Assembly (NCBI RefSeq): GCF_902652985.1
Contig: NC_047020.1
Location: forward strand, 12,400,001-12,464,000
DNA: 64,000 bases
DNA from: Pecten maximus
Taxonomy: Eukaryota
Reading direction: 5' to 3'
Each line of letters begins with the position of its first letter. The first letter of the stretch is position 1. A program made the position numbers and the translations under genes. The notes beneath the pieces are model-generated. The model worked only from the letters and a program-made list of their open reading frames with translations. It had not been told where the DNA came from and searched no databases. Positions 1-48,193 of this stretch are shown piece after piece.

Positions 1-361
1 CTGACCGGACATGCCACGTGCTTGAGACTCGGGGTAAACTACATTTATTTCATTTATATGGTTAGTTGTGATTAAACGATGGTTGGCGTATGTTTTAGGC
101 TAGACGTATATAACTGCAAACTCCTCACTGTGTCTCACGGGTATTATTTTGGTACTTTATTTTTACACATGTTAATAAATTGTTGAACTTTATATGACGA
201 GTCTATTTTCCTTCTCACCAGTTTACTAAATACTGTCTATTACTTGAAAATTCATTTGTATTTGGAATCTGCAAGCGAAAGCGGCAGTCGAACCCTGGGC
301 AAAAACTTGGTAGCAGTTCGACACACGTGGCACCCCTGCGGTACACGTGCTGCGCGTTACA
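1..361 (+). repeat. 5' LTR (3' part only) of the SGNH-carrying element
   Basis: About 98% identical to 7517-7880; ends ...GCGTTACA; contains AATAAA near 174. Confidence 0.85.
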
Positions 362-363
362 AT

Positions 364-381
364 TGGAACCTCCGGCGGGAC
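364..381 (+). promoter_or_regulatory. Putative primer-binding site TGGAACCTCCGGCGGGAC
   Basis: Starts with TGG (complement of tRNA CCA) 2 nt after the LTR end. The cognate tRNA was not identified; it loosely resembles an Arg-type PBS. Confidence 0.55.
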
Positions 382-878
382 CCGTTTATTTTTGTGATAT
401 TGCGGTCTCCGTTTTGTAAAGTAAAACAGTAGTTTTTTATTAAGGAATAAATTTGGATGTAATATTGAGCTTGCAGGGATAACTTTGGTTAAAAAAACCC
501 TGGTGAGAATGGAAGGTTCTGAAAGGATGGGCGACGGATTTATCGAGGGGAAGGCACTGGTTAGTAGGGGGATGGGGGTAATAGATAATCCTTTGGAACT
601 TAAACCGGAGTTTGAATTTATTGGGATGCCCAGCCCCTCGGGCCGGGGGACGTCATAGGCGTCCGCCGACTGGATGAGGTCGGGGGCCTATGACCTCACC
701 TTATTAGAATTTTCACTTCCTGTAGTGTAGGATATTTATGGTATGATAATGTTAGTCATAATTATATAGCTAATAGGTTATTTTTTTTGTTTACTTTCAT
801 GTAAAATCCTGTGTTGCTGGCGCCCCCTCTAACCTGGGGGAGGGAACCACGGAAGAGGACCCAGGCCCCTGTAACCAT

Positions 879-1358
879 ATGGAGCTCCAACAAATGACCA
901 CGCGTGGTAGACCTGCCCGGACATAGACACTCGGCTTCCAGAGGTACCATGATCATGACCTTAGACAGCACATGCATATGGCGTTTGATCAACTGATGGT
1001 GCATGTGAAACAAAACCACATAGGAACTGCATACAAACTTTTGCAAAATACCTTGAATGGCCGCCAGGGTTGAGCTGTATGGTGGTGGATGTGAACACAG
1101 GACATTGGGGTAGTCAACTTTGCCCCCTGGTTGACCGTGACCCCCAACCGCGCAGTGCTTTATATATATATGTGACTGGAAGGTCCATCCGAAGACGTCT
1201 GGAGGAACTTTCATAAAAATATAACGGGTACAGTTGTTCTAATACATGTGGTGGTTGAGTGAAGTTGTTCGCACGGGCAGGCAACATGGGCAGGGGCCTG
1301 GAGGACACTGGAGTCGACCCCTGGAATTCCTTCCCTTCCCCAGGAGGTGTGCCAGTGA
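879..1358 (+). pseudogene. Decayed ~160-codon ORF of unknown function inside the LTR element
   Basis: One frame reads MELQQMTTRG...QEVCQ* with 4 internal TGA and 1 TAG, each a single C>T step from CGA/CAG. The in-register antisense frame is open over 762-1214. Confidence 0.4.
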
Positions 1359-1489
1359 CACTTTAGTGACAGTAATACCATGGATGGTAATTATAGTTGT
1401 ATTAATCTGGATGTGAGGAGTATGGTAATGTATTGAGGTGAATTGTAACAATTCTTTTCTTCTTTTTTTTATTGTAGGTACAATTAAAC

Positions 1490-2061
1490 ATGGATAGACA
1501 GGTAACAGGCAAGGTGGCCCTTGTGGGGCATAGTTTTGTCAACCGGGTGGGGGGTTTGATAAAGACTAACAGGGGTGGGCATTATAGGGAGAATTTCGGA
1601 TTGAGGGAAGTGGAGGTTAGGATGTATGGCAGGTCCGGGGGGAGGATATGGGACGTAGTCGGGTTATATTTTTAGTGGACACTATGATTGGGGAGGGATT
1701 TCGGCCAGGGGTGGTTATTCTACAAATTGGGGGGAACGACCTAGATTCACGGGGGGAGGGGTGGAAGCAGTTTATGGGGGTACTGCGAATGGTTTTAGAT
1801 AAGTTGGATAGGTGGGGGGTGGCCCGTGTTGCGAGGGAATACCCTCATACCCGGTTTCGGGCAGTAACTGGGGCGCGCCGGGCGCGTCTCAACTTTGCCA
1901 TGTCCCTTGAGCTCAGGGACCGTGGGCAAAGTTGGGTCGCCCGGAGGCGCCTCATGTCCCCTCGATTGCTGGCCGATGGGGTTCACCTGAACCCAACCGG
2001 CATGAGGAGATACTACCATGAGCTGCAGCACGTGGCCATCAGGGAGTTGAGAAAGATTTAG
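1490..2061 (+). pseudogene. SGNH/GDSL hydrolase (esterase) of about 190 aa, split by one frameshift near the T-run at 1669-1673
   Basis: Block I VALVGHSF and block II GRSGG lie in ORF 1490-1675. Block III LQIGGND and block V DGVH lie in ORF 1648-2061. Adding one T to the T-run joins them. Confidence 0.85.
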
Positions 2062-4012
2062 TTTAGGGGGGGTTCTGAAGTAGGTAGAATGGGAGTGGGG
2101 GGTTAGACATAAACTGGATACTGGAGGGGGGAGGGGGAAAGAATTTTTCAATAGTTGGGTGTATGGAGTCACTTTATTTGTAGTATTGTGTAAGTGATCA
2201 CTAAATGTATTATTTACTAGATATTGGGGCTCAATCAGAGATGACGGGGGGGGGGGGGGTGTTCAGTAAGGGTATTGTAGATTTTTTTTCTTAGCTGGGA
2301 GGTCACCGGTTTGGGGTTGTCCCTTCCGTGGCTAGAGTTGATATGACCAACACAGGGTATGGGCGACTGCATGGTTATAGATAGGTTGGGTGGGTATAGG
2401 CTGCTACTGCGTCAACTCTGATCGGGCAAGATATTTAGTTCAAGGAGGAAGTTAAGATTGTTTTAGAATGTCTATAGTGGTTAATTATGTATAATGGGAG
2501 TGGCTTCCCCAAATTTAGTCAGGGTGGGGGTTAAGTGCTGACACCGGACAAAAGTCCATGTTTTTTTTTCATTTTTGGGTTTAATTTTTATGTTTGAATT
2601 GTAGTGTGTAATGTTATTTTTTTGGTGTAATATTTAGTTATGGAGGTGAACTACAGCTAAATCCCTGCAAACTAACAGTTGTTGCTGGACCCCTGACCAA
2701 TGTGCTTACTCTACATGTGCGAAATTTATAAATAAATTACATCCTTGAGGTTTCTCTCCAGTTAAATTTAAGGTCATTAACTGTTCTATAAGGAACACCT
2801 AGTTCTCCTAAAATTGATATTTGGCCACAGGGTTCCTGTAAGAAATTACCAGTTATACCTAGAATTTGCTCTCTACTAATGAAATAAGACACTTGTCTAC
2901 ATATTATTGAGTATAACCCAGCATCAACTGTGAAAGTCTAGGTTTTTTTTATTGTGTTAAGTTTGGTTGCACAGTGGAAAGTAACATGTGCAATTTGTTA
3001 ATGTTATGTGTAACCTTATTTTTTTTTATGTGACTAGATGTTATATGGTTACTATATCCCTATTGAAGAACAGGCTGGAAAATAGAAAAGAAATGTCAAT
3101 ATTCATTTTTGGAATTTGAAATACTTATGTGCTCAGGAGTGAATCAAAATGCTCAAGGGTCAAATATTCAATGCTCAAAAAGCTCAAGGCCCAAATATTG
3201 AATCTCAAAATGCTGAAAGCCAAATGTCAATGCTCAAGGCTTAAATACTAAACATATACTTTGTTTATACTTGAATCTCAATATGCTTGAGATCCAGAAC
3301 TTGAATGGAAATGCTCAAGGTCTAAATATTCCATGCTCAGAGTGCTTGAGGCCTAATTATCAATGCTAAACACATTTATGCATTGTTTTATACTGGGCCA
3401 AAGAAATGCTGCCAGGAAAAAAACAAAACAAAAATATTGTTTTATATTATTACGAAATGCTGAATCATGTAAACTGGCAAATACAATAGGCAAGCATGGT
3501 TTATATTAGGCATAGGAAATGCTGAATCCTGTAAACTGGCAACTATAATGGGCGAGCATCTCTGATGTAAAATCATAATTTGGAAGGAAATTTATGTGAA
3601 AACATACAAGGATGTTGAGTATGTCCACTATACAGAATTGTGTAATCCGAAATGACACCTTGAACTAGATTATTCCCAGGAGCTTGAAAGAAACACTGTA
3701 TAAGAAGCAGTTGAACTTTTACAATTTAACATTCTCTGAATAGACATTTTATGGGAAGTTTGTCATTTTGACAATTTTTGATGATCATGACTTAGGGTGC
3801 TATATGATCACCCCTGTACTAATTGCCTGTAAAACTAACTTTGTCCTTGTAGATTGACAATACAAAGGAAATATAGGTGTAATTATTGATCATGAATTGA
3901 TATTGTGTTAACTACAATGCATAAGAATCTAATTTAAATGATACAAATGTATATGTGTTGATATAACTAAAATTGTGTGATTGTAAAACCTGATTGCAGG
4001 GAGTCGCCTCCA

Positions 4013-5030
4013 TTTTTAGCTCACCTGGTCCGAAGGACCAAGGTGAGCTTATGCCATACCGTGGCGTCCGTCCGTCTGTCGTCCGTCCGTCAACAATTGA
4101 CTGACTTGACTTCTTCTTCATAACCGCTGATCAGAATTTCACTAAATTTGGTCAGAAGCATCCTTATGGGTAGGGGACTCAAAATTGTACAAATGATGGG
4201 GCTGACCCCCAGGGGGCCTCTGGGGCGGGGCCAAAAGGGGTCTATTTAGCTATTTTGATATAAACGACTTCTTCTCTGAAACCGAGCAATGGATATCTCT
4301 CATATTTGCCTGGTAGCATCACTACTGAGTGGGGACTCAAAATTGTACAAATGGTGGGGCTGACCCCCCGGGGCGCTGAGGGGCGGGACCAAACAGGGTC
4401 AATTTGGCTAAATTGATATAAACAACTTCTCCTCTGAAACTAAGCAATGGATATCTCACGTATTTGCCTTGTAGCACCTACTTGGGGTAGGAATTCAAAA
4501 TTGTACAAATGGTGGGGCTAACCCCCAGGGTGTCTTAGGGGCGGGGCCAAAAAGGGCCAGTTTGGCTAGATTGATATAAACCGACTTCTCCTCTGAAACT
4601 AAGCAATGGATATCTCACATATTTGACTGGTAATATCCCCTTGGGGTAGGGATTCAAAATTGTACAAATGATAGGGCTGACCCCCCTGAGGGCTGAGGGG
4701 CGGGCCAGAAGGGATTAATTTGCCTAAATTGATATAAACAACTTCTTCTCTGAAACTAAGCAATGGATATATATATATCGCTCATATTCGCCTTGTAGCA
4801 TCCCCTTGGGGTAGAGATTCAAAATTGTGACAATTGGTGGGGCTGCCCCCTGGGGAGCTGAGGGGCGGGGCCAAAAGGGATCAATTTGGCTAAATTGACA
4901 TTTTTAGAATTACAATAAAAACAATGTTCATGTAACCATATAAAATGCCTATGATATATTGACATAGCAATACCAGTGGCAAATATCTCATGAAACCAGG
5001 TGAGCGATACAGGCCTCTGGGCCTCTTGTT
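4013..5030 (+). mobile_element. Helentron-type non-autonomous element (HINE/DINE-1-like), copy 1, about 5 internal ~158-bp repeats
   Basis: 5' hairpin AGCTCACCT-GGTCCgaaGGACC-a-AGGTGAGCT; (GTCC)n-type microsatellite; tandem ~158-bp units; 3' subterminal IR CCAGGTGAGC; 3' stem-loop AGGCC...GGCCT; T-rich flanks. Confidence 0.8.
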
Positions 5031-5270
5031 ATATGTTGTACCAGAACGTTGTTATCTGGTGTATTTTTGTGAAAAATGAAATGTATCGTGGGCCAGTGAG
5101 GAACTTCTTCTCTTGTGAACTTAATTCTTTTTTTTTTCTCCTGGTAAGCAGTTAGGTAACATGTTGATGTGGCAACTGATGTCCAGCTTTTTCACCTAGA
5201 TTATCTCCCTTTGGCTGTTTGTAAATTATCTCCCCTTTGACTGTTACCGGATACGGGTCGTAGCCTATTC

Positions 5271-5286
5271 AGGTGGTTGGGGGGTA
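5271..5286 (+). promoter_or_regulatory. Polypurine-tract-like sequence
   Basis: AGGTGGTTGGGGGGTA directly precedes the 3' LTR start TGTAACGC. Confidence 0.6.
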
Positions 5287-7880
5287 TGTAACGCAGTTGC
5301 GTTCCGCTCGTTTATTTTTGGACTCATTCCGGAAAATTGTAACATCCGGTCACGTAAGATACCCGTGCTGCTGTGGGGTCAATCACTTTTCGTTCGGGTG
5401 TCAGCAGGGTAAGTGGTGTTGACTTTTAATATGTGAAATTAATTAAATAACCGTCGCCCATCCTTTCCTAAATTTCATATTAATTTGTCTGCTGGATATT
5501 ATTTGCCACTATCGTACATGTATTTTTAGCTCACCTGGTCCGAAGGACCAAGGTGAGCTTATGCCATACCGTTGCGTCCGTCGTCCGTCCGTCCGTCAAC
5601 AATTGACTTCTTCATAACCACACATCAGAATTTGACCCAAATTTGGTCAGAAGCATCCCTATGGGTAGGGGACTCAGAATTGTACAAATGATGGGGCTAA
5701 CCCCCTGGGGGCCTCTGGGGCGGGGCCAAAAGGGGTCATTTTTGCGCTATTGATATAAACGACTTCTTTTCTGAAACCAAGCTATGGCTATCACTCATAT
5801 TTGCCTGGTAGCATCACTATGGGGTGGGGATTCAAAATTGTACAAATCATGGGGCTGACTCCCCAGGGACCTGAGGGGCGGGGCCAAATGTGGTCAATCT
5901 GGCTATATTGATATAAACGACTTCCTCTCTGAAACCAAGCAATGGCTATCGCTCATATTTGGCTGGTAGCATCATTATGGGGTGGGGATTCAAAATTGTA
6001 CAAATGATGGGGCTGACCCCCCAGGGGCCTGAGGGGTGGGGCCGAATGTGGTCAATTTGGCTATATTGATATAAACGACTTCTTCTCTGAAACTGAGCAA
6101 TGCCTGTCACTCATATTTGCCTGGTAGCATCACTATGGGGTTGGGATTTAAAATTGTACAAATGATGGGACTGAACCACCAGGGGCCTGAGGGGCGGGCC
6201 AAATGTGGTCAATCGGGCTATATTCATATAATTGACTTCTTCTCTGGAACCAAACAATGGATATCTCATATTTCACTGGTAGCATCACCTTGGGGTAGGA
6301 ATTTGAAATTGTACAAATGACAGGGCTGACCCCCTGGGGTCTGAGGGGCGGGGCCAAAAGGGGTCAGTTTTACAGAATTGATATAAACGACTTCTGCTCT
6401 GAAACTAAGCAATGGATATCACTCATATTTACCTGGTAGCATCCCTATGGAGTTGGGATTCAAAAATTGTACAAATGGTGGGGCTGACCCCCAAGGGGTC
6501 TGAGGGGCTGGCCAAAAGGGGTCAATTTGGCTCTCTCAATATAAACGACTTCTTCTCTGAAACCAGGCAATGGATATCGCTCATATTTGCCTGGTAGCAT
6601 CACTATGGGGTGGGGATTAAAAATTGTACAAATGATGGAGCTGACCCCCCGGGGGCCTGAGGGGCGGGGCCAAATGTGGTCAATTGGGTTATATTGATAT
6701 TAGCGACTTCTTCTCTGAAACCAAGCAATGGATATTGCTCATATTTGCCAGGTAGCATCACTATTGGGTGGGCATTCAAAATTGTACAAATGGTGAGGCT
6801 GACCCCCCGGGGGCCTGAGGGGCGGGGCCAAGAGAGGTCAATTTGGCTGAATTGATATGAACAACTTCTCTGAAACTAAGCAAGAGATATTGCTCATATT
6901 TGCCTGGTAGCATCCTTTTGGGTAGGGATTCAAAATTTTATAAAGGAAGGAACTGACCCCCACTCTCCCCGGGGTGCAGAAGGCGGGGTCAAAAGGGGTC
7001 AATTGGTTTAAACAACTTCTTTTCTGAAACTAAGCAATGGATATCACTCACATTTGTGTGGTAGCATCCATATGGGGTTGTGCCAAAAGTTCATTTTATT
7101 TCATGGATTAATGTATTTTTTGACATCAAATCCTCACGTACCCATATAAGATGCCTATGATATATTGACATAGCAATACCAGTGACAAATATACTTAATC
7201 ATCATTCTTGTTTCATATCTCATGAAATCCAGGTGAGCGATACAGGCCCTCTGGGCCTCTTGTTATTTTCACGTGTAGTATTTTGATGTATTTTCGATGT
7301 ATAGAACTTTGTTTAATTTGAGTCTCGTGTGCCGGTGTTATGTCGGAAGTCAGGTTGTTGCTTGAAGGAATTATTCCATTTTGAGAGTACTCGCGGAGTG
7401 ACTAGTGAATATTTCCGCCTCTCGGGCTGTTTCTATACCGGTTAAGCGAGGGATGGTTGTTGGTAACCTCGTAAGTAGATACGGGAGAAAAGACGGGTGG
7501 TTAGCAAATGTGTATTCTGACCGGACATGCCACGTGCTTGAGACTCGGGGTAAACTACATTTATTTCATTTATATGGTTAGTTGTGATTAAACGATGGTT
7601 GGCGTATCTTTTAGGCTAGACGTATATAACTGTAAACTCCTCACTGTGTCTCGCGGGTATTATTTTGGTACTTTGTTATTTTTACACATGTTAATAAATT
7701 GTTGAACTTTATATGACGAATCTATTTTCCTTCTCACCAGTTTACTAAATACTGTCTATTACTTGAAAATTCATTTGTATTTGGAATCTGCAAGCGAAAG
7801 CGGCAGTCGAACCCTGGGCAAAAACTTGGTAGCAGTCCGACACACGTGGCACCCCTGCGGTACACGTGCTGCGCGTTACA
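5287..7880 (+). repeat. 3' LTR (about 850 bp net), interrupted by a HINE
   Basis: TGTAACGC...GCGTTACA termini; distal 364 bp match 1-361; 5523-7264 is an insertion. Confidence 0.75.
5523..7264 (+). mobile_element. Helentron-type non-autonomous element (HINE), copy 2, about 9 internal ~158-bp repeats
   Basis: Same 5' hairpin, microsatellite, repeat unit, 3' subterminal IR and 3' stem-loop as 4013-5030. Confidence 0.8.
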
Positions 7881-8779
7881 ATATTATATTTAATATTATT
7901 CCATATGAACATTGAAGCTCTAACATCGTGAGCAAGTCTGAGGATTATTTTCTTTACCAATTTGCGCCCCGTCTATTACAAATGTGTAAAGTAACTGATT
8001 TTAGAAATTTGAATGGTCGGACTCCAGGAATACTGCCAGTAATTTCACATTTTATAAAGCTTTAGGTTCCAATACTATAGACTATGTCCTTGCCAATAGA
8101 GGTCTTATGAATATTGTTAGAATGTTGAAAAACGCGTGTTTTCTTTTCGGCGGAAGTATATGATCTCGTTAAGTGACGAACCATATGGCCGATTCGGTTT
8201 TTTCGTATAATAAGTCAAGCATGATCATGTTTAAAAGTAACAGTCGAAACGAACAATGTTTTAACCCCGAAAATATCTACAAAAACAGCAAAGTTGATGG
8301 TATAAGCCCGTCCATCACTTTATAAAGGATATACCGGTATTTAATTATTTATAGTCCGAACTCTAAGGTAATAGTCGCTTTAGACATTTTAAAGCCACAC
8401 CTTTTTTTTTAATAAATATTCTGACATCTAGATCTCCATTCCTTTTAATCTTGAGTGCAGCCACCAGTAGCTGTAAGTGTTATGAAACAAGTAATACATT
8501 TCTGTATAGTCAGTTCTATGACATGGAAAGGTGAGATGCTAGGATGAATTCTGCCAAACGTGTTAATGAATATAAGGAATTAACTTTTAGGTCATTGAAT
8601 GAGTTAGCGAATACCAGAGACATATATATCTGTATATATGTCTCTGCGAATACCAAAGACAGCATTGATTCTTGTCTACATGTGTTGCTGAATAACGTCC
8701 ATTCTGTTTTTGATAAGTTTTGTTCAAAGGATAAAATTGTGGTTACGTGATTCTGTTTAAGATACTATATATGATTGAA

Positions 8780-20849: not shown

Positions 20850-22880
20850 TCCATGAACCATCGCATTGTCTAAGTAATCCATACATATGTCCTAATGTAA
20901 CCCGACCAAGACTAACTCTGTAAGCCTTTCAAACGTGGCTGGTGTGCAACACAAGCCAAATGACATCACCCGAAACTGAAACAAGCCCTTCCTGGTGGTA
21001 GAGGCTGTTTTTGGTCTGTCTCTCGGATTCATCGCAACCTGCCAATAGCCTGAGCAAAGGTCAAGTGTAGTGACAACCAGCTAGCTTATCAAGCGTGCCG
21101 TCAACGGTCACGTCATTTAGATGATGATAGTCGACGCAGAAACGAGTGGTGCCGTCTTTGTTTTTGAACAGTTCCACACCAGAGGAACATGGGCTGGTTG
21201 AGCGTTCAGTGATTTCCTTTGTCAACATATCCTCTACACGTTTGTCTTCTTACTCTGACTGATGGACAGGAATGCGTCTCATTGCTTGATAGGCCGTAAG
21301 GTGGCCGTGTCTATTTGTTGTTTAATTTCAATTCTTCCGAAGTCAGCATCTGTTGCGGTAAAAGCACCCTTGTACCGGAATAATAATTCTTCCGCTCGAT
21401 TTGCTTGTGCTTAAATGGATTTTTGATAGTTCCAGCAATTGCTTGATCTGTGGTCGTTCACCGTCCAGTTCCTCCGACTCTGTTTCCCGTTGTAAGCATT
21501 CTCCCTCTTGCAGCACAAGTACCAAGATAAATCGTATGTGGTGTATCAGCCGTATTCATTATACGGATCGGAACAGTAGTTTTGTGAGTGACCAGAGAAC
21601 TGGCTACCAGTGATCTATCCGACTTCAGGAAAACTTATGATGCCTCAAGTACGAGATCCGTTGTTCGTTCCAGCGTGCCAACAGGTACTATGATACGTCC
21701 AGGAATGATTAATTCGCTGCGGATGTAGAGCTCCACTTTAGAACTCACACTCACTCGGTAACACATTCTTTTCCTCGAAATTGGGCAGGCACAATAACGC
21801 CGTCCATCATCATCTGTCTCTTGTCCATGTCAACAATGCAGCGATTATCCACGAGAAAATCCAACCCTAGGATTCCATCAACGTTGATCTTGACTACAAC
21901 CGCCTTTGTGAACCTCTCATTATTGAGAATCTACCTTTGCTAATCTTTATCTAAAGGTTCTCCGCTACTGTATTGCTTGTCTGAGATACTTGGTGTAATG
22001 CTTGCCTAGTCGTCATTTTCTTATAAAGCCAGGCGGAGATCAGCGTAACTGTTGCCCCATTATTGAGCAGAAGATTACATTACTTGAATAGACACATGTA
22101 TGAACATTCCGCCTTCCTAGTACAGGAGGCAGCTCTAACTGGACGCGCATCGTCGCTAACACTGGTCGTTGTTGGGACCCGTTCATTTGTGTGCTTAATT
22201 GCGCTTGATATGCCCTTCCTTGTTGCAACAATAGCAACGGAATGTTTGGATGTCTAAACACCACTGTCCTCTTTCTTGGTTGCTGAAGCGGTGCCGGATT
22301 TCAAGTGAGAGATATCCCTCTGCAATGTTTCCATCTGCTCCGTCAATGCTTTTATCATGGATTTCAGCTTGCCACCAGCTGCACTGTCCCCATTCTCATT
22401 ATTTTCCGAAACGTTTTGGCACAGGAGACCAGTCCCATCATCCTTACGCTTTTCTGCGCGTTTAAATGTCTCTACCGCTAGATACACAGCTTCTTTCAAG
22501 GTCTTTGGTCTGCCACTTTATTCTGACACGCGTATCCACGTCATTTAAAGCATCAGTTAACTGCTTCTTGGCCAGTGTTTCACGCACCTCCTCCGATGCT
22601 GTAGGATACGCAAGTATCTTTAATCTCCGTAGTCATACCGTGGTGGAGGACATCCTGGATACATTTCCGTCTCACGCTGGCTAGCTCGAGCTCCATACCT
22701 ATCGTAACCTCTGAAATTCAGGCTACTATAGTAGTCGGTATAGGGGGTTCGTTACAAAGTCATGTTTTGGGATTCGAGATATTTTCTAAAAAACAAAACA
22801 AATGTAATGCCGCCGGGGCGTACAACAATAAGTAACACTTTATTTGGTGGTCGTCTGACCACTACGTAGCTATCTACATT
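20850..22880 (-). mobile_element. Decayed Ty3/Gypsy (LTR remnant, gag with zinc knuckle, protease, partial RT)
   Basis: Minus-strand fragments: LAYPTASEEVRETLAKKQL (gag), RCYCCNKEGHIKRN* (CCHC), DGILGLDFL (protease), KDGTTRFCVDY and TLDLCSGYWQV...SFGLCCTPATFERL...YLDN (RT). Many stops and frameshifts. Confidence 0.85.
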
Positions 22881-41452: not shown

Positions 41453-42512
41453 TGTCACAGGGTTATATTTTATGTAAAATCATTGTATGTTATATTTCAT
41501 GGAGTGTGCATCTTTAATGTACTGTTGGTATTTGTTTGGTGTGAGAAACCTTAATAGGAATGAAAGGAATGTGAGTATGTATGACATGTGACCTGACATG
41601 GACAATTTCATTGGACAGTTTTTACCTGTATTGCATGTTTTTAATCCTCTTAGTATTTCAAATCACTTCTCTTCTGGCGCTCTAGCTGAAAACAATCTGT
41701 AGAAGTCAGAGCCTAAATTATATTGAAGATCTGGTGAGTTTTTACTTTCATTTGATACTATTTTGTAACTAAGTATATATTAATGTTGTATTATAAAACA
41801 ACATGTAATATTGTGTTTTAATAAGTATTTTGAAAAGATCTGTGTAGAAAGCATATCTGGTACTTTGTCAGAAGTTATGTGCTTCATGTATGTTTAATTG
41901 GAATTGATAGATATCATAATACAATATATTTTGTATATGACGTTTTTATTTGTATATATATTAGACCAGATTATTCATTGATTACAGCTGGTGATTACTT
42001 GTGAATCTGGTTGGTGGTAATGAATAATGTTCCGGAAACCTCCGCATGATATGTGGGGTGAGTTGTAGTTCTGGTTGTTTTAATTGTATAGTACATTATG
42101 TACATGGTGATTTTGTCTGTAGGAAAATTACCAATGTTTTATATATATTAATAGTAATGTAAGTGATAAAGGTAGGGATAATTTCCTAATTTGATATTTG
42201 TATATCTATTGTGTCTAAATAGTGAATAACTAGTTTGATATATTCTAGTTATCGATATGTGTATTCTAAAAACATAAATGTATTAGTATTTGGTTCTGTT
42301 AACGTATTTATAACAGAAATTGTGCCATCTCTTTGTTATCGGTTCAAATATGTTACATGTAAGAGTTATGTCCCTTGATTGTCATGTCTGTAGTTTAGTA
42401 TGTATGTGTGTATGATTAGTATTTCTTGTAATTGTAGGGTTTTATTAATGGATAATAAAACTACCATGAACAACAAAGTGGCATTGGATTATATATACCC
42501 ACACCTGTAACA
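41453..42512 (+). repeat. 5' LTR
   Basis: No differences from 47125-48184 seen by eye; TG...CA ends; AATAAA at 42454. Confidence 0.95.
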
Positions 42513-42514
42513 AA

Positions 42515-42528
42515 TGGCGCCCAACGTG
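42515..42528 (+). promoter_or_regulatory. Primer-binding site complementary to tRNA-Lys(1,2)
   Basis: TGGCGCCCAACGTG equals the first 14 nt of the known Lys1,2 PBS TGGCGCCCAACGTGGGGC. Confidence 0.85.
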
Positions 42529-42820
42529 ATTAATTGGATTTTGTGATCACCGGTAGATGACGGGAGGAATATTCAATTACAAGCCCCTGTGTTCAATTAG
42601 CGGAAGTGATTTCCGGTCCCGAGAAAGTTTTCCATGATGACGACATGTACAGCCGACAGCGGTAAGCTGATTTGGTGACATTTCCCGTGACAAGTTATTT
42701 ATTTGAACTTGACATTTATATTTCTGTGTTCCTGATTCGATGTGTGTTTTGGTCGCGAATAGTCAACACCCATTTATCCTGTTTTGGTGAGGCACTTTAT
42801 ACATTTTATGTGATGGACAC

Positions 42821-45800
42821 ATGTGCCGACTGTTGCACTTGTGTGACAGTTCGTCATTGACCTTTCGCTATACCGGAAGTGTGCAGAGACTTTGTTACAA
42901 ATTATTTCTGAGACCTGTGTTGCCAAATCAGATATTGGACATTGAGTGTGCTGGTGGTACGTCATTGCCATATCTAGGATGTATTGAAGCTGATTTGGAG
43001 AGACTCCCAGGGCTTAGTGGTAAACCTCATCGATGTATTTTCTTAGTTATACCAGACAGTAATTACAACAAAGCCGTTCCTTTGCTGTTGGGGACTAACA
43101 TTCTTATAGAGGCTTTGAACGGAAGTAGACGTACTCATGGTGGACGTTTCTTACAAGACATGAAGATGGAAGCACCTTGGTATCTGACATTTCGTTGTCT
43201 GATGTTAAGGTCTAAGGAGCTTCGACGCAGAGAATTTTGCCTTGGTAAGGTGAAGCTGGCAGAGAAAGGAAACATCACGATTGCTTCAAACTCAAAGGTG
43301 ACTGTAACGGGGATGATTGACAAGCCAGTTAATTATATACCAACCTGTGCCCTTGTACAAGCTACCAAGTCAGATATTACTCAGGATTTGGACATTACAC
43401 CTGGATTGCTGCACTACGACTACAGAGAACTCGACTACAGAGTACCTGTCACTATCTCGAACATCAGCGTCCGGAGTATTACCATACCATCCAAGTCTGT
43501 TATAGCAGAACTACATCCTGTTTCAGTAGAGGGATCATTAGAAGATTATCATACTCCTGAGAAGGAATCAGACTTCAGGAATCTTCTTAACTTGGACCTA
43601 ACATCTCTAGATAGACATCAACAGATAAAGTTGGATAATCTTTTACAGGATTTTTCCGATGTTTTTTCGTCAGGGGATCTTGATCTGGGCCATTGTTCGG
43701 GTACTCAACATCATATCGAGTTAACAGATGATACCCCGTTCAGACAGAGATTCAGGAGGATACCCCCGGCCATGTTAGAAGAGGTTAGGGATCATCTCAG
43801 GCAGCTGTCAGCATGTGGAGTGATTCGTCGGTCTCACAGTCCATGGTCCTCATGCGTGGTATTAGCTAGGAAGAAGGATGGCACCCTGAGAATGTGTATT
43901 GACTATCGTCAACTCAACAACAGGACGATAAAAGATTCCTACGCTTTACCCAGGATAGAGGAGATCTTAGACTCGCTCCATGGCTCGAAGTATTTTACAG
44001 TTCTAGATATGAAGAGTGGATACCATCAGGTGGAAGTAACGGAGGAGCACAAACAGAGGACAGCATTTACTGTTGGACCTTTGGGACTATGGGAATATAA
44101 CAGAATGCCATTTGGACTTGTGAACGCTCCGGCTACTTACCAGAGATTAATGGAAGACTGTTTAGGAGACTATATTGGATCTATATGTTTTATATATCTG
44201 GATGATTTGATTATCTTTTCAAAGGATGTTGACACACATATGGATCGCCTGGCACTGGTATTTCAGCGGCTGAGGGAGAGCGGGATAAAGCTATCGCCGA
44301 AGAAGTGTTCACTGTTCCAGTCAAGGGTGAAATATTTAGGTTTTATTGTCTCTGAAGATGGTGTGGAAGCTGACCCTGACAAGATATCAAAGATTGCGGA
44401 ATGGAAACCACCGGAGAGTCCAGATGAACTTCGCAAATTCCTTGGCTTTGCAGGATACTATAGGAAATTTGTTAAGAATTTTTCTACCATCGCTAAGCCA
44501 TTGAATGACCTGCTCCCACCTACAGTAAAGAAGAAGATGAAACCTAGCAAGAAATCAATTCCGATTGATTGGACATGGGGTAACGAACAGCAGGAAGCTT
44601 TTGACAGGCTCAAGGAAATACTTACTACACCTCCTGTACTGGGATATCCAGATCTGACTTTACCCTTTGAGCTGCATACCGATGCTAGTGGACGAGGACT
44701 CGGGGCAATACTATACCAGACTCAGGATGGAAAGAAGAAGGTTATCAGTTATGCAAGTAGAGGTTTAAACAAGGCAGAAAGAAGATACCCTGCTCATAAA
44801 CTGGAATTTCTTGCGTTGAAGTGGGCTATAACTGACAAATTCTCTGATTACCTGTACGGAACAACGTTTTCTGTCTTAACAGATAACAATCCCTTAACGT
44901 ATGTCTTGACTACAGCTAAACTGGATGCCACAGGACACCGATGGTTAGCGGCTCTATCTAACTACAACTTCACGATTAGGTACACACCAGGTCGTACCAA
45001 CACAGACGCTGATGCTTTGTCTCGTCTGCCTGAGGAGTTGGATACGGAGTCGGTCAAGGCCATATGTGGAAGTTTGCAGGGAGATGGACGAGCTGATATT
45101 CTGTCAACAGCTGATACATGGGATGATGATCTTTGTGACTTGGAGCAGATGTCCAATAGGGATTGGAGACGTGTACAGTCAAGGGATCCAGTACTACAGC
45201 CATTCATCCATGCTGTTAGAGAAGGGAAGAAACCCAGTAGACAGAATTTGAGTCCGAAGCAGCTAATGCTCCTGCGTAACTTCAGTCATCTCACTCTAGA
45301 CAACAGTGTTTTGTACAGAGAGACACTTAAGCAGACTCAGAAGATTCGACAACTGGTTTTACCTACATCTATGATGAAGTGTACTCTGCAATACTTGCAT
45401 GATGACGTAGGACATCCAGGGAGAGACCGTACCCTTTCATTGGTCCAGGAGCGATTCTATTGGCCTGGAATGACCAGGGATGTCGAGGACTGGGTTTCTA
45501 ACTGTCAGCGTTGTACTTTGAGGAAAACTCCTACAACTCAGAGAGCACCTTTAGTCAACATCAGGACCTCTCAACCTCTTGAATTGGTTTGTGTTGATTT
45601 TCTGACACTAGAGATGTCCAAGGGTGGATTTCAACATTTACTGATACTTACGGATCATTTTACGCGGTACGCCCAGGCCTACCCTACCAGGAATATGACA
45701 GCCAGGACAACAGCGGAAGTGTTATACAACAACTTCTTCCTTCATTATGGTTTTCCTGTTAGGCTTCATTCAGACCAGGGACCAAACTTTGATGGAAAAT

Positions 45801-47002
45801 TGATCCATGAGCTGTGCCATGTTGCAGGAATCAGGAAATCAAGGACTTCACCCTACCATCCGAGCTGCAATGGGATGTGTGAACGGTTCAATAGAACTGT
45901 ACTGAACATGTTGGGAACATTGGATCCGGACCTGAAGGGTGATTGGAAGAAACATGTAGGACCCTTGGTACATGCTTACAACAGTACACGGCATGAACAG
46001 ACTGGCTATAGTCCATTCTACCTTATGTTTGGGAGGAGGCCACGGTTACCAGTGGACTTAGCTTTTGGGATTGAGAGAAAGGAGAAGAGTTCAAGCCCGT
46101 GTAAGTATGTGGATGAGCTGCGAACCAGACTAAAGTCTGCTTATGATGTTGCCACAAGGAGTGCAGATAAAGCTCGGGGGAGACAAAAGGAAAACTATGA
46201 CAGACGGATACGCGGTTCAAGCATATTGTGTGGTGATAGGGTGTTGGTTAAGAAGCTGGTACATGAAGGAAAGCATAAGCTTGACAACAAATGGGAAGAT
46301 ACAGTGTATGTAGTGGAAAAACAGGAGAACAACGAAATCCCGGTATTCACTGTCAGGCCGGAAACAGGAACAGGTCGTACCAGGAAGCTCCACAGGAACC
46401 TGCTACTACCAGTAGGGGAGTTATTCTCTCAGGAGAGCGGAGATGTGGACCCTGATCCTGTGATTCCGAAGCCAAGACTCAGACGGAACAGATCTAGGGA
46501 TACCGTGGAGAAGGTAGTCATCAATGGAGATGATCATGGTCCAGCAGCTGATCTAGTTAGCACTTCATCCAGTGCTGAGGGGGCTAGAGACGTTGGCATG
46601 GACACTGGAGTTTCTTCTGACGTGGATGACGACCCATTGCCAGATGAAACTGAGGGTGGCAGTGGTGCTGATGACGATCAGAACTCTACTGCAGAGGATC
46701 ACCAGATGTCGCCCAGGAGGGTCCTCAACTCTTCGGAGGGGGAGGAAGTGGCACCTGTCAGTGCCAAGCACCGAGGACCAGATCATGAGAGACCAGTACC
46801 TGTTCCCAGGAAAACTATCAGAAGACATCAACCCCCGACTTGGCAAACCTCGGGTGAATTTGCTATGCGCCAGACCACTGTGACACCAGATTGGATGTCA
46901 AGGGCAAGCTACCTGCAGGAATTGGCCAAGGAAGGGAATCTGGACAGAATGCCAGAGAGAATATTGGATTCTCTTTTGACCATTGTAAGTGGGTCAACAT
47001 GA
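42821..47002 (+). CDS. pol: Pol polyprotein: partial protease, RT, RNase H, integrase and an acidic C-terminal extension
   Basis: RT motifs LDMKSGYHQ, MPFGL and YLDD. RNase H motifs TDASG, LEFLALKWA and TDNNPL. Integrase HHCC (H..GH...C..C), D,D-35-E core (CVDF, HSDQG, NGMCER), and a GPY/F-like KLDNKWE. Confidence 0.95.
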   Translation: MCRLLHLCDSSSLTFRYTGSVQRLCYKLFLRPVLPNQILDIECAGGTSLPYLGCIEADLERLPGLSGKPHRCIFLVIPDSNYNKAVPLLLGTNILIEALNGSRRTHGGRFLQDMKMEAPWYLTFRCLMLRSKELRRREFCLGKVKLAEKGNITIASNSKVTVTGMIDKPVNYIPTCALVQATKSDITQDLDITPGLLHYDYRELDYRVPVTISNISVRSITIPSKSVIAELHPVSVEGSLEDYHTPEKESDFRNLLNLDLTSLDRHQQIKLDNLLQDFSDVFSSGDLDLGHCSGTQHHIELTDDTPFRQRFRRIPPAMLEEVRDHLRQLSACGVIRRSHSPWSSCVVLARKKDGTLRMCIDYRQLNNRTIKDSYALPRIEEILDSLHGSKYFTVLDMKSGYHQVEVTEEHKQRTAFTVGPLGLWEYNRMPFGLVNAPATYQRLMEDCLGDYIGSICFIYLDDLIIFSKDVDTHMDRLALVFQRLRESGIKLSPKKCSLFQSRVKYLGFIVSEDGVEADPDKISKIAEWKPPESPDELRKFLGFAGYYRKFVKNFSTIAKPLNDLLPPTVKKKMKPSKKSIPIDWTWGNEQQEAFDRLKEILTTPPVLGYPDLTLPFELHTDASGRGLGAILYQTQDGKKKVISYASRGLNKAERRYPAHKLEFLALKWAITDKFSDYLYGTTFSVLTDNNPLTYVLTTAKLDATGHRWLAALSNYNFTIRYTPGRTNTDADALSRLPEELDTESVKAICGSLQGDGRADILSTADTWDDDLCDLEQMSNRDWRRVQSRDPVLQPFIHAVREGKKPSRQNLSPKQLMLLRNFSHLTLDNSVLYRETLKQTQKIRQLVLPTSMMKCTLQYLHDDVGHPGRDRTLSLVQERFYWPGMTRDVEDWVSNCQRCTLRKTPTTQRAPLVNIRTSQPLELVCVDFLTLEMSKGGFQHLLILTDHFTRYAQAYPTRNMTARTTAEVLYNNFFLHYGFPVRLHSDQGPNFDGKLIHELCHVAGIRKSRTSPYHPSCNGMCERFNRTVLNMLGTLDPDLKGDWKKHVGPLVHAYNSTRHEQTGYSPFYLMFGRRPRLPVDLAFGIERKEKSSSPCKYVDELRTRLKSAYDVATRSADKARGRQKENYDRRIRGSSILCGDRVLVKKLVHEGKHKLDNKWEDTVYVVEKQENNEIPVFTVRPETGTGRTRKLHRNLLLPVGELFSQESGDVDPDPVIPKPRLRRNRSRDTVEKVVINGDDHGPAADLVSTSSSAEGARDVGMDTGVSSDVDDDPLPDETEGGSGADDDQNSTAEDHQMSPRRVLNSSEGEEVAPVSAKHRGPDHERPVPVPRKTIRRHQPPTWQTSGEFAMRQTTVTPDWMSRASYLQELAKEGNLDRMPERILDSLLTIVSGST

Positions 47003-47113
47003 TGTTTTATTTGTTATTTTAGTAGTACATGTATGTTGTTTTTATCCATTTTCTTGTAGGTGTGCAACATTGATATCTCCGTCACAACAATGACACGGAG
47101 GTCATTCATCTGT

Positions 47114-47124
47114 GAGGGGGAGTG
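47114..47124 (+). promoter_or_regulatory. Polypurine tract
   Basis: GAGGGGGAGTG immediately precedes the 3' LTR. Confidence 0.85.
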
Positions 47125-48184
47125 TGTCACAGGGTTATATTTTATGTAAAATCATTGTATGTTATATTTCATGGAGTGTGCATCTTTAATGTACTGTTGG
47201 TATTTGTTTGGTGTGAGAAACCTTAATAGGAATGAAAGGAATGTGAGTATGTATGACATGTGACCTGACATGGACAATTTCATTGGACAGTTTTTACCTG
47301 TATTGCATGTTTTTAATCCTCTTAGTATTTCAAATCACTTCTCTTCTGGCGCTCTAGCTGAAAACAATCTGTAGAAGTCAGAGCCTAAATTATATTGAAG
47401 ATCTGGTGAGTTTTTACTTTCATTTGATACTATTTTGTAACTAAGTATATATTAATGTTGTATTATAAAACAACATGTAATATTGTGTTTTAATAAGTAT
47501 TTTGAAAAGATCTGTGTAGAAAGCATATCTGGTACTTTGTCAGAAGTTATGTGCTTCATGTATGTTTAATTGGAATTGATAGATATCATAATACAATATA
47601 TTTTGTATATGACGTTTTTATTTGTATATATATTAGACCAGATTATTCATTGATTACAGCTGGTGATTACTTGTGAATCTGGTTGGTGGTAATGAATAAT
47701 GTTCCGGAAACCTCCGCATGATATGTGGGGTGAGTTGTAGTTCTGGTTGTTTTAATTGTATAGTACATTATGTACATGGTGATTTTGTCTGTAGGAAAAT
47801 TACCAATGTTTTATATATATTAATAGTAATGTAAGTGATAAAGGTAGGGATAATTTCCTAATTTGATATTTGTATATCTATTGTGTCTAAATAGTGAATA
47901 ACTAGTTTGATATATTCTAGTTATCGATATGTGTATTCTAAAAACATAAATGTATTAGTATTTGGTTCTGTTAACGTATTTATAACAGAAATTGTGCCAT
48001 CTCTTTGTTATCGGTTCAAATATGTTACATGTAAGAGTTATGTCCCTTGATTGTCATGTCTGTAGTTTAGTATGTATGTGTGTATGATTAGTATTTCTTG
48101 TAATTGTAGGGTTTTATTAATGGATAATAAAACTACCATGAACAACAAAGTGGCATTGGATTATATATACCCACACCTGTAACA
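47125..48184 (+). repeat. 3' LTR
   Basis: Same length and apparent sequence as the 5' LTR; followed by the TATA TSD. Confidence 0.95.
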
Positions 48185-48193
48185 TATATATTA

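Follow-up and report, generated by a model that had tools for sequence, protein, structure and literature searches.

An SGNH esterase as the third open reading frame (ORF3) of Gypsy-like retrotransposons, and a non-autonomous family that keeps its ORF3, are already known (PMC5408684). Vesta of bdelloid rotifers has a Gypsy-like gag-pol and an SGNH ORF3 with intact catalytic residues and no transmembrane domain, and TelKA2n of Adineta vaga is non-autonomous, without gag's C-terminal portion and the bulk of pol but with its ORF3 kept (PMC5408684). The family described here is like Vesta in these features, and its derivative is like TelKA2n. One copy, with long terminal repeats (LTRs) and an SGNH/GDSL esterase gene, occupies positions 1-7880 of a 64,000-nucleotide stretch of Pecten maximus DNA (NC_047020.1, positions 12,400,001 to 12,464,000 of the forward strand), which we call the window. 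We consider it probable, with good confidence, that this element belongs to a multi-copy derivative that arose from a Ty3/Gypsy family by deletion of gag-pol, and that full-length members likely copy it in trans and likely swap segments with it. On this reading it would be a passenger that depends on its relatives, as is known from other elements, and not a new split system.

The window element and its gag-pol parent

A parent copy on contig C3728 is 10,333 bp long and contains, in order, an LTR, gag with zf-CCHC, protease (PR), reverse transcriptase (RT), RNase H (RH), integrase (IN) with an integrase C-terminal domain, SGNH, and the second LTR. It shows 97% LTR identity and has the same primer-binding site (PBS) as the window copy, and downstream of pol it carries the window copy's spacer, SGNH gene, 3′ region and LTR. 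Pfam searches of four copies (L079, L081, L059 and L023) place the Ty3/Gypsy pol order PR-RT-RH-IN behind a zinc-knuckle gag, and the family has the TG...CA LTRs, tRNA PBS, polypurine tract (PPT, with only 11/15 purines) and short target-site duplication (TSD) of Ty3/Gypsy elements. The SGNH gene of the parent is 0.2-0.3% from those of young derivatives, and L023 is 0.2-1% from them over SGNH and spacer. Because the full-length relatives share LTR, primer site and SGNH with the window copy, the esterase is the parent's ORF3. The trans-mobilised element without gag and pol that a preliminary description had proposed from the sequence of the window is supported in this respect: the derivatives are multi-copy and gag-pol-less, are likely mobilised in trans, and have a pol-encoding partner with which they share LTR and PBS.

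The 5′ LTR of the window copy is ~854 bp long as a whole and starts 493 bases before the window, which holds its 3′ part (1-361, + strand). The 3′ LTR (5287-7880, +) consists of 5287 to ~5526 and 7265-7880. The pair is 98.8% identical (mismatches at 10/849 sites), with 5 substitutions and one 3-base indel between 1-361 and 7517-7880. The termini are TGTAACGC/GCGTTACA, with ATAT on each flank; the 4-bp TSD at 7881-7884 (+) has its match before the 5′ LTR, where the preliminary description had advised looking for it. The PBS (364-381, +) is complementary at 18/18 positions to the 3′ end of tRNA-Arg(CCT), that is, to the terminal 18 bases of a genomic tRNA-Arg(CCT) plus CCA, and a G-rich, PPT-like tract (5272-5286, +) has purines at 11/15 positions. 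The LTR identity of ~98%, the termini and both priming sites given in that description were thus confirmed. Its claim of an interior without gag or pol stands in part. While tblastn of the parent gag and pol against window 1-7880 gave no match, small pieces of the beginning of gag and of the end of pol are retained at 509-704 (+), fused in a G-rich stretch (~567-583). They are followed by a spacer common to the window copy and the parent (705-1444, +), the SGNH gene (1490-2061, +), and a non-coding 3′ region (2062-5271, +) that occurs in all forms of the family.

Relative to the C3728 copy, ~4.5 kb of gag-pol is missing in the derivatives, whose gag ATG and short gag remnant are joined in the G-rich stretch to the last ~40 codons of pol. 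This junction is common to 22 PBS-bearing gag-pol-less copies. It is also present in L038, whose interior is 15-24% diverged from young copies; in L049 and L057 the 5′ side of the junction is shared and the sequence is interrupted at the junction. A one-off deletion is therefore rejected; gag-pol was deleted once, long ago, and the resulting form was later amplified. Copies with gag-pol between PBS and SGNH, which the preliminary description had expected of a one-off deletion derivative, do exist, but the window copy is not a one-off. A perfect 4-bp TSD flanks 13/14 gag-pol-less copies with two LTRs, each copy has its own flanks, and four of the 14 LTR pairs have 0 mismatches. These TSDs and identical LTRs therefore point to recent transposition without enzymes of their own, and thus to mobilisation in trans. 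Loss of gag-pol or of SGNH by splicing was also considered and rejected, as neither junction has GT-AG ends.

Since the DNA search of the 918-Mb genome scored only 40/58 family candidates, exact PBS matches were counted as well. There are 30 such matches, and 23 of them open gag-pol-less elements: 9 with SGNH, 13 without it, and 1 of a further deletion form (L171). The esterase is thus missing in 14/23 and carried by 9. The remaining matches comprise six in five gag-pol places, one of them on a contig folded back on itself, and one in an unrelated LTR family (L170); three additional gag-pol places have no exact PBS. An old deletion derivative therefore outnumbers its parent ~4:1 while exchanging segments with it. 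The LTR end matches the genome 104 times, and at 11/14 further LTR places the sequence retrieved contains no interior to the left or right of the LTR.

Several single loci deserve mention. L171 (412-4182, G000:C3670) is a third deletion form of ~3.8 kb with both LTRs and without gag-pol, spacer and SGNH. L170 (1282, G000:C14:10968282) belongs to a different LTR family with the same tRNA-Arg(CCT) primer site. In L059 (2706-8614, G000:C3727), an LTR-gag-pol sequence ends in RNase H and is folded onto an inverted LTR-leader-gag copy, which may be an assembly artefact or a rearrangement. A family copy on C3 contains two nested frames, a second, distant SGNH (L057 7769-8308, -) and a MULE/OTU-like transposase of 983 aa (L083 2157-5105, +). 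Matches of the tRNA-Arg(CCT) type are arrayed at ~2-kb spacing on G000:C3559 and C3560; ARAGORN was applied to 5/27 tRNA-Arg(CCT) matches, none of them from these two contigs.

The SGNH esterase

The SGNH gene and its catalytic blocks, as named in the preliminary description, are present in the window (GHS at 1526, GGND at 1729, DGVH at 1975), but the gene is broken by a +8 frameshift and by 6-base and 12-base deletions. Judged from its sequence, the window copy cannot make the esterase. An unbroken frame of 193 aa is found in 5/10 gag-pol-less copies examined, one of them with N80T, and a sixth gag-pol-less copy has a 3-residue deletion in SGNH and has lost the acceptor-like AG described below. 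Pfam Lipase_GDSL_2 matches an unbroken copy (E 5e-9), and the catalytic residues S15, G47/G50, N80, D166 and H169 are conserved, with the exception of N80T in L021. Blocks I, II, III and V (S, G, N, D-x-x-H) and the SGNH fold are all present, the latter in a predicted structure with a pLDDT of 92.5. The gene lies between pol and the 3′ LTR, which is the env position, as had been supposed. The protein is basic (pI 11.5) and shows no hydropathy of transmembrane level (maximum over 19 residues 1.22); the signal peptide or transmembrane anchor of an env-like ORF3 was likewise not seen in this hydropathy scan, with no dedicated predictor run. The top solved-sequence match of the SGNH profile is the ZfL2-1 ORF1 esterase 4C1B. 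By analogy with that enzyme, the small, very basic family protein is predicted to have esterase activity and to act on, or bind to, acidic lipids or membranes.

We compared SGNH copies with the reference L041. In 10/10 copies more than 4% diverged from it, dN/dS is 0.07-0.25 (p <= 4e-5), although these comparisons share one reference and hence are not independent. Nine closer copies have too few changes, one of them at p = 0.045. The values, which apply between subfamilies, bear out the suggestion that SGNH is under purifying selection. We also scanned all six frames with 14 copies pooled, and within the interior only the SGNH frame shows sustained constraint (pN/pS 0.30-0.43). No frame of the spacer or 3′ region matches this signal in the scan, and the spacer shows no SGNH-like codon-level constraint in six frames; single windows in these regions reach 0.39-0.5, based on few differences. 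Because SGNH alleles move between backbones and there is no gag-pol-less clade, the selection is not assignable to the satellite.

To place the gene among its relatives, 18 distant SGNH loci in the genome (26-35% identity) were fetched, and 12 of them were extended downstream. In 7/12, SGNH is followed by gag-like, RT and tyrosine-recombinase (YR) frames (RT by Pfam in 7/7; YR by Pfam in 3/3 tested and by motif in the rest); one other has a gag-like frame only, and four have nothing recognised downstream. No Gypsy pol was found upstream on the same strand in the 6.5 kb fetched. That these relatives sit in YR elements, and that SGNH has a presence/absence boundary, would suit a reading in which SGNH is a nested Ngaro/DIRS or LINE fragment in an empty LTR element, or in which the copies arose by segmental duplication. 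We give this reading hardly any credence. The SGNH-less allele retains a remnant of the last codons of the ORF (clear in L039), hence the boundary probably marks a loss; SGNH is not flanked by remnants of YR or RT; the family SGNH and two outside proteins (46-48% identity) group in a long-branched clade of their own (support 100/100); and flanks and TSD differ from copy to copy, contrary to segmental duplication. The nested fragment that the preliminary description had allowed for is thus not what the clade and the direction of change indicate. Membership of the element itself in Ngaro/DIRS is ruled out by the DDE integrase of the parent, the true LTRs and the 4-bp TSD.

When 1.84 billion representatives were searched with a profile, there were 4 matches at E <= 1e-30 and 1440 at 1e-3. 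A metagenome scan yielded 4 weak loci among 108 candidates, with no gag or pol match, and a search for longer fused SGNH forms yielded 5 weak matches among 7997 scored, with no retroelement domain listed. The gene was likely captured long ago from the SGNH genes that circulate among retroelements. Several YR retrotransposon families of this genome (L151-L156 and L158, e.g. G000:C5:29672000-29689899) have an SGNH frame ~0.7-1.3 kb upstream of gag-RT-YR. In amphibian Ngaro, by contrast, SGNH comes after YR (PMC9210276). The layout in these loci may reflect a circularly permuted or tandem arrangement.

For expression, contigs from 8/24 listed runs were compared with the element; only 2/8 are on record as RNA, and the contigs, which come without a control for DNA carry-over or a silent stretch, cannot reveal absence or level. 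The junction left by the loss of gag-pol is bridged by records from X5, X6, X8 and X13, and a single record of X8 continues without splicing through the acceptor-like site and the complete SGNH frame. Immediately 5′ of the gag ATG (509) is a splice-donor-like GTGAGA (503-511, +), a putative donor. A polypyrimidine tract with AG (1448-1477, +), 12 bases 5′ of the SGNH ATG, is splice-acceptor-like and also found in the old copies L037 and L038. As these sites precede the gag ATG and the SGNH ATG, respectively, the esterase is likely made from a spliced subgenomic RNA.

Esterase loss and exchange between copies

Two gag-pol copies (L034, L036) carry an SGNH-less allele with the same boundaries as that of gag-pol-less copies. 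It is likely a loss, because in the old copy L039 the upstream boundary is joined to the last SGNH codons. Statistically, the remnant is weakly supported: homology of the SGNH-less remnant to the whole cassette is not significant (198-376 of 500 shuffles), and a post hoc test of the tail gave p <= 0.017 in 4/5. Since 14 gag-pol-less and 2 gag-pol copies are without the esterase, it is dispensable in cis.

All four combinations of gag-pol and esterase occur among the family copies. As each of the two deletions arose once, recombination is needed to account for the full set. Incompatibility between sites grows with distance, from 0.17 (<100 bp) to 0.51 (>2 kb), and between neighbouring sites it is 0.24 versus 0.46 +/- 0.014 in permuted data (0/2000 permutations, with 193 sites from 19 copies). 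A tree built from the SGNH of 14 copies pairs gag-pol-less with gag-pol copies at three depths, and a gag-pol-less clade is rejected (p-AU 1.9e-5). The mosaic segments and haplotypes fit co-packaging and template switching. In such a cycle, helper Gag would package derivative RNA beside helper RNA, tRNA-Arg would prime reverse transcription of the derivative RNA, RT would switch templates between the two co-packaged RNAs, and helper integrase would insert the derivative. The esterase, translated from the spliced subgenomic RNA, would likely aid particle assembly or transport, acting in trans and being dispensable in cis.

The distribution of intact esterase genes admits another arrangement, a complementing split system in which gag-pol-less SGNH carriers now supply esterase to gag-pol helpers that lack the gene or have it broken, with SGNH-less copies as free riders. 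Unbroken SGNH frames occur only in gag-pol-less copies (5/10 examined versus 0/4 with gag-pol), and gag-pol copies without SGNH (L034, L036) exist. Young SGNH alleles are also less diverse (0.4% at 4-fold sites) than the sequences on either side of them (2.4-3.3%), a pattern suggesting that a single allele has spread recently, and Quinta of wheat is a precedent for a non-autonomous partner that contributes (PMC11302176). However, two of the four breaks in gag-pol copies (L023, L024) are single-base indels in G runs, which may be assembly errors or damage after insertion. SGNH alleles of the two kinds of copy are intermixed at every tree depth, second codon positions are at least as variable as 4-fold sites among young copies, and gag-pol-less copies without SGNH outnumber the carriers, 14 versus 9. 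Nor are the two functions obligately divided, as 4/6 gag-pol copies covering the region carry SGNH, though frameshifted. We therefore regard a complementing split system as unlikely. The earlier proposal of an element that keeps only accessory genes, as the esterase-supplying part of a split system, is not supported, given the gag-pol that other copies hold between PBS and SGNH, the near-identical SGNH of the parent and the absence of SGNH from most gag-pol-less copies. We assign an equally low probability to the related view that the esterase is a shared good, with gag-pol and esterase as freely recombining modules, gag-pol-less carriers supplying esterase-less helpers, and double-deleted forms riding on both.

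Several findings weigh against derivatives copied in trans by, and recombining with, full-length members of their own family. No gag-pol copy with unbroken frames was found in the assembly: gag-pol is in 4 to 6 pieces in the three whole copies listed, and two more are cut off. The two measured parent LTR pairs differ at 11 and 23 sites and are older than the youngest derivatives. Other Gypsy families (37-43% identity) have long open frames. SGNH is frameshifted in 4/4 copies with both gag-pol and SGNH and unbroken in five gag-pol-less copies, and the dN/dS comparisons are not independent, as stated above. No splice joint was seen in the contigs of 8/8 runs compared, which cannot show absence, and gene conversion between inserted copies could explain part of the mosaicism.

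Some of these points could also be accommodated if the parent were extinct and the derivative rode on a different Gypsy family with the same tRNA primer. No unbroken parent was found, the unrelated L170 has the same PBS, and long stretches of open pol frame occur in many other Gypsy families. L170, however, has no LTR similarity to the family, and the parent copy L023 is so close to young derivatives over SGNH and spacer (0.2-1%) that the parent lineage was active recently. Mobilisation across families is accordingly very improbable, and copying by full-length members of the same family is the reading we prefer.

Neighbouring elements and described systems

In the window copy, ~1.0 kb of the interior and 1.7 kb within the 3′ LTR are nested HINE-like insertions with 158-bp units, both absent from other family copies. 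The first (4017-5029, +) breaks the 3′ region; it has subterminal inverted repeats at 4019-4029 (5′) and 4995-5005 (3′), an inner repeat at 4041-4049, a GTCC microsatellite and 158-bp units. The second (5527-7264, +) splits the 3′ LTR at a T-rich site. Both show features described for oyster Cg_HINE elements (PMC7492417), namely inverted repeats in subterminal position, a further repeat inside them, a microsatellite of GTCC and insertion at T-rich sites, a likeness in keeping with a bivalve host. Elsewhere in the window, a second, unrelated young Gypsy lies at 41453-48187 (+), with 1063-bp LTRs that are 99.9% identical, TATA flanks and a different PBS. Its 4.6-kb interior is one RT-RH-IN frame of 1403 aa that starts 275 bases after the LTR and has no match to a gag or protease family; it is possibly a gag-less, pol-only form. 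A fragment of another Gypsy RT is at 20853-21300 (-).

In the literature searched, we found neither a Gypsy element of molluscs whose ORF3 is an SGNH gene nor a non-autonomous family that keeps an esterase, although families of these kinds may exist in Repbase, in subscription journals or in supplements, which the search did not cover. The available part of PMC6238403 does not mention an esterase or PBS, and PMC10886601 was set aside as a comparison, as it concerns TRIMs. The family bears on the question of why SGNH esterases are retained across several classes of retroelement. It offers a small ORF3 esterase, predicted to be active, under clear purifying selection in a Gypsy element. Since natural copies with and without the esterase exist on autonomous and non-autonomous backbones, expression and spread can be compared by haplotype.

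Compared with Vesta, beside which it is set by description only, the family has a 0.58-kb ORF where the GDSL amplicons of Vesta are 1.3 kb. The Vesta GDSL gene shows no departure from neutrality within the genome (PMC5408684), whereas dN/dS here is low between subfamilies. The ORF3 of TelKA2n is env-like and not an esterase, and no four-haplotype structure is described for it in the parts of PMC5408684 consulted. ZfL2-1 (4C1B, PMC3905857) and Ngaro (PMC9210276) also encode SGNH hydrolases, as here. The former is a non-LTR ORF1 and the latter a YR-element gene, whereas in this family SGNH is located between integrase and the 3′ LTR, and the 193-aa protein has no coiled-coil partner domain. RLG_Cereba and RLG_Quinta of wheat are Gypsy partners that share LTR motifs, PBS and PPT, and the partner keeps one protein gene (PMC11302176), as the derivative does here. 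In Quinta, which represents an old lineage of its own, the retained gene is a diverged GAG, whereas the gene kept here is ORF3, which is exchanged with the parent. The LTR clans of Ty1 and ONSEN produce mosaics from co-packaged RNAs of autonomous and defective members (PMC6894440), as we infer for this family; their mosaics were demonstrated on new insertions, and those described here are read from standing copies.

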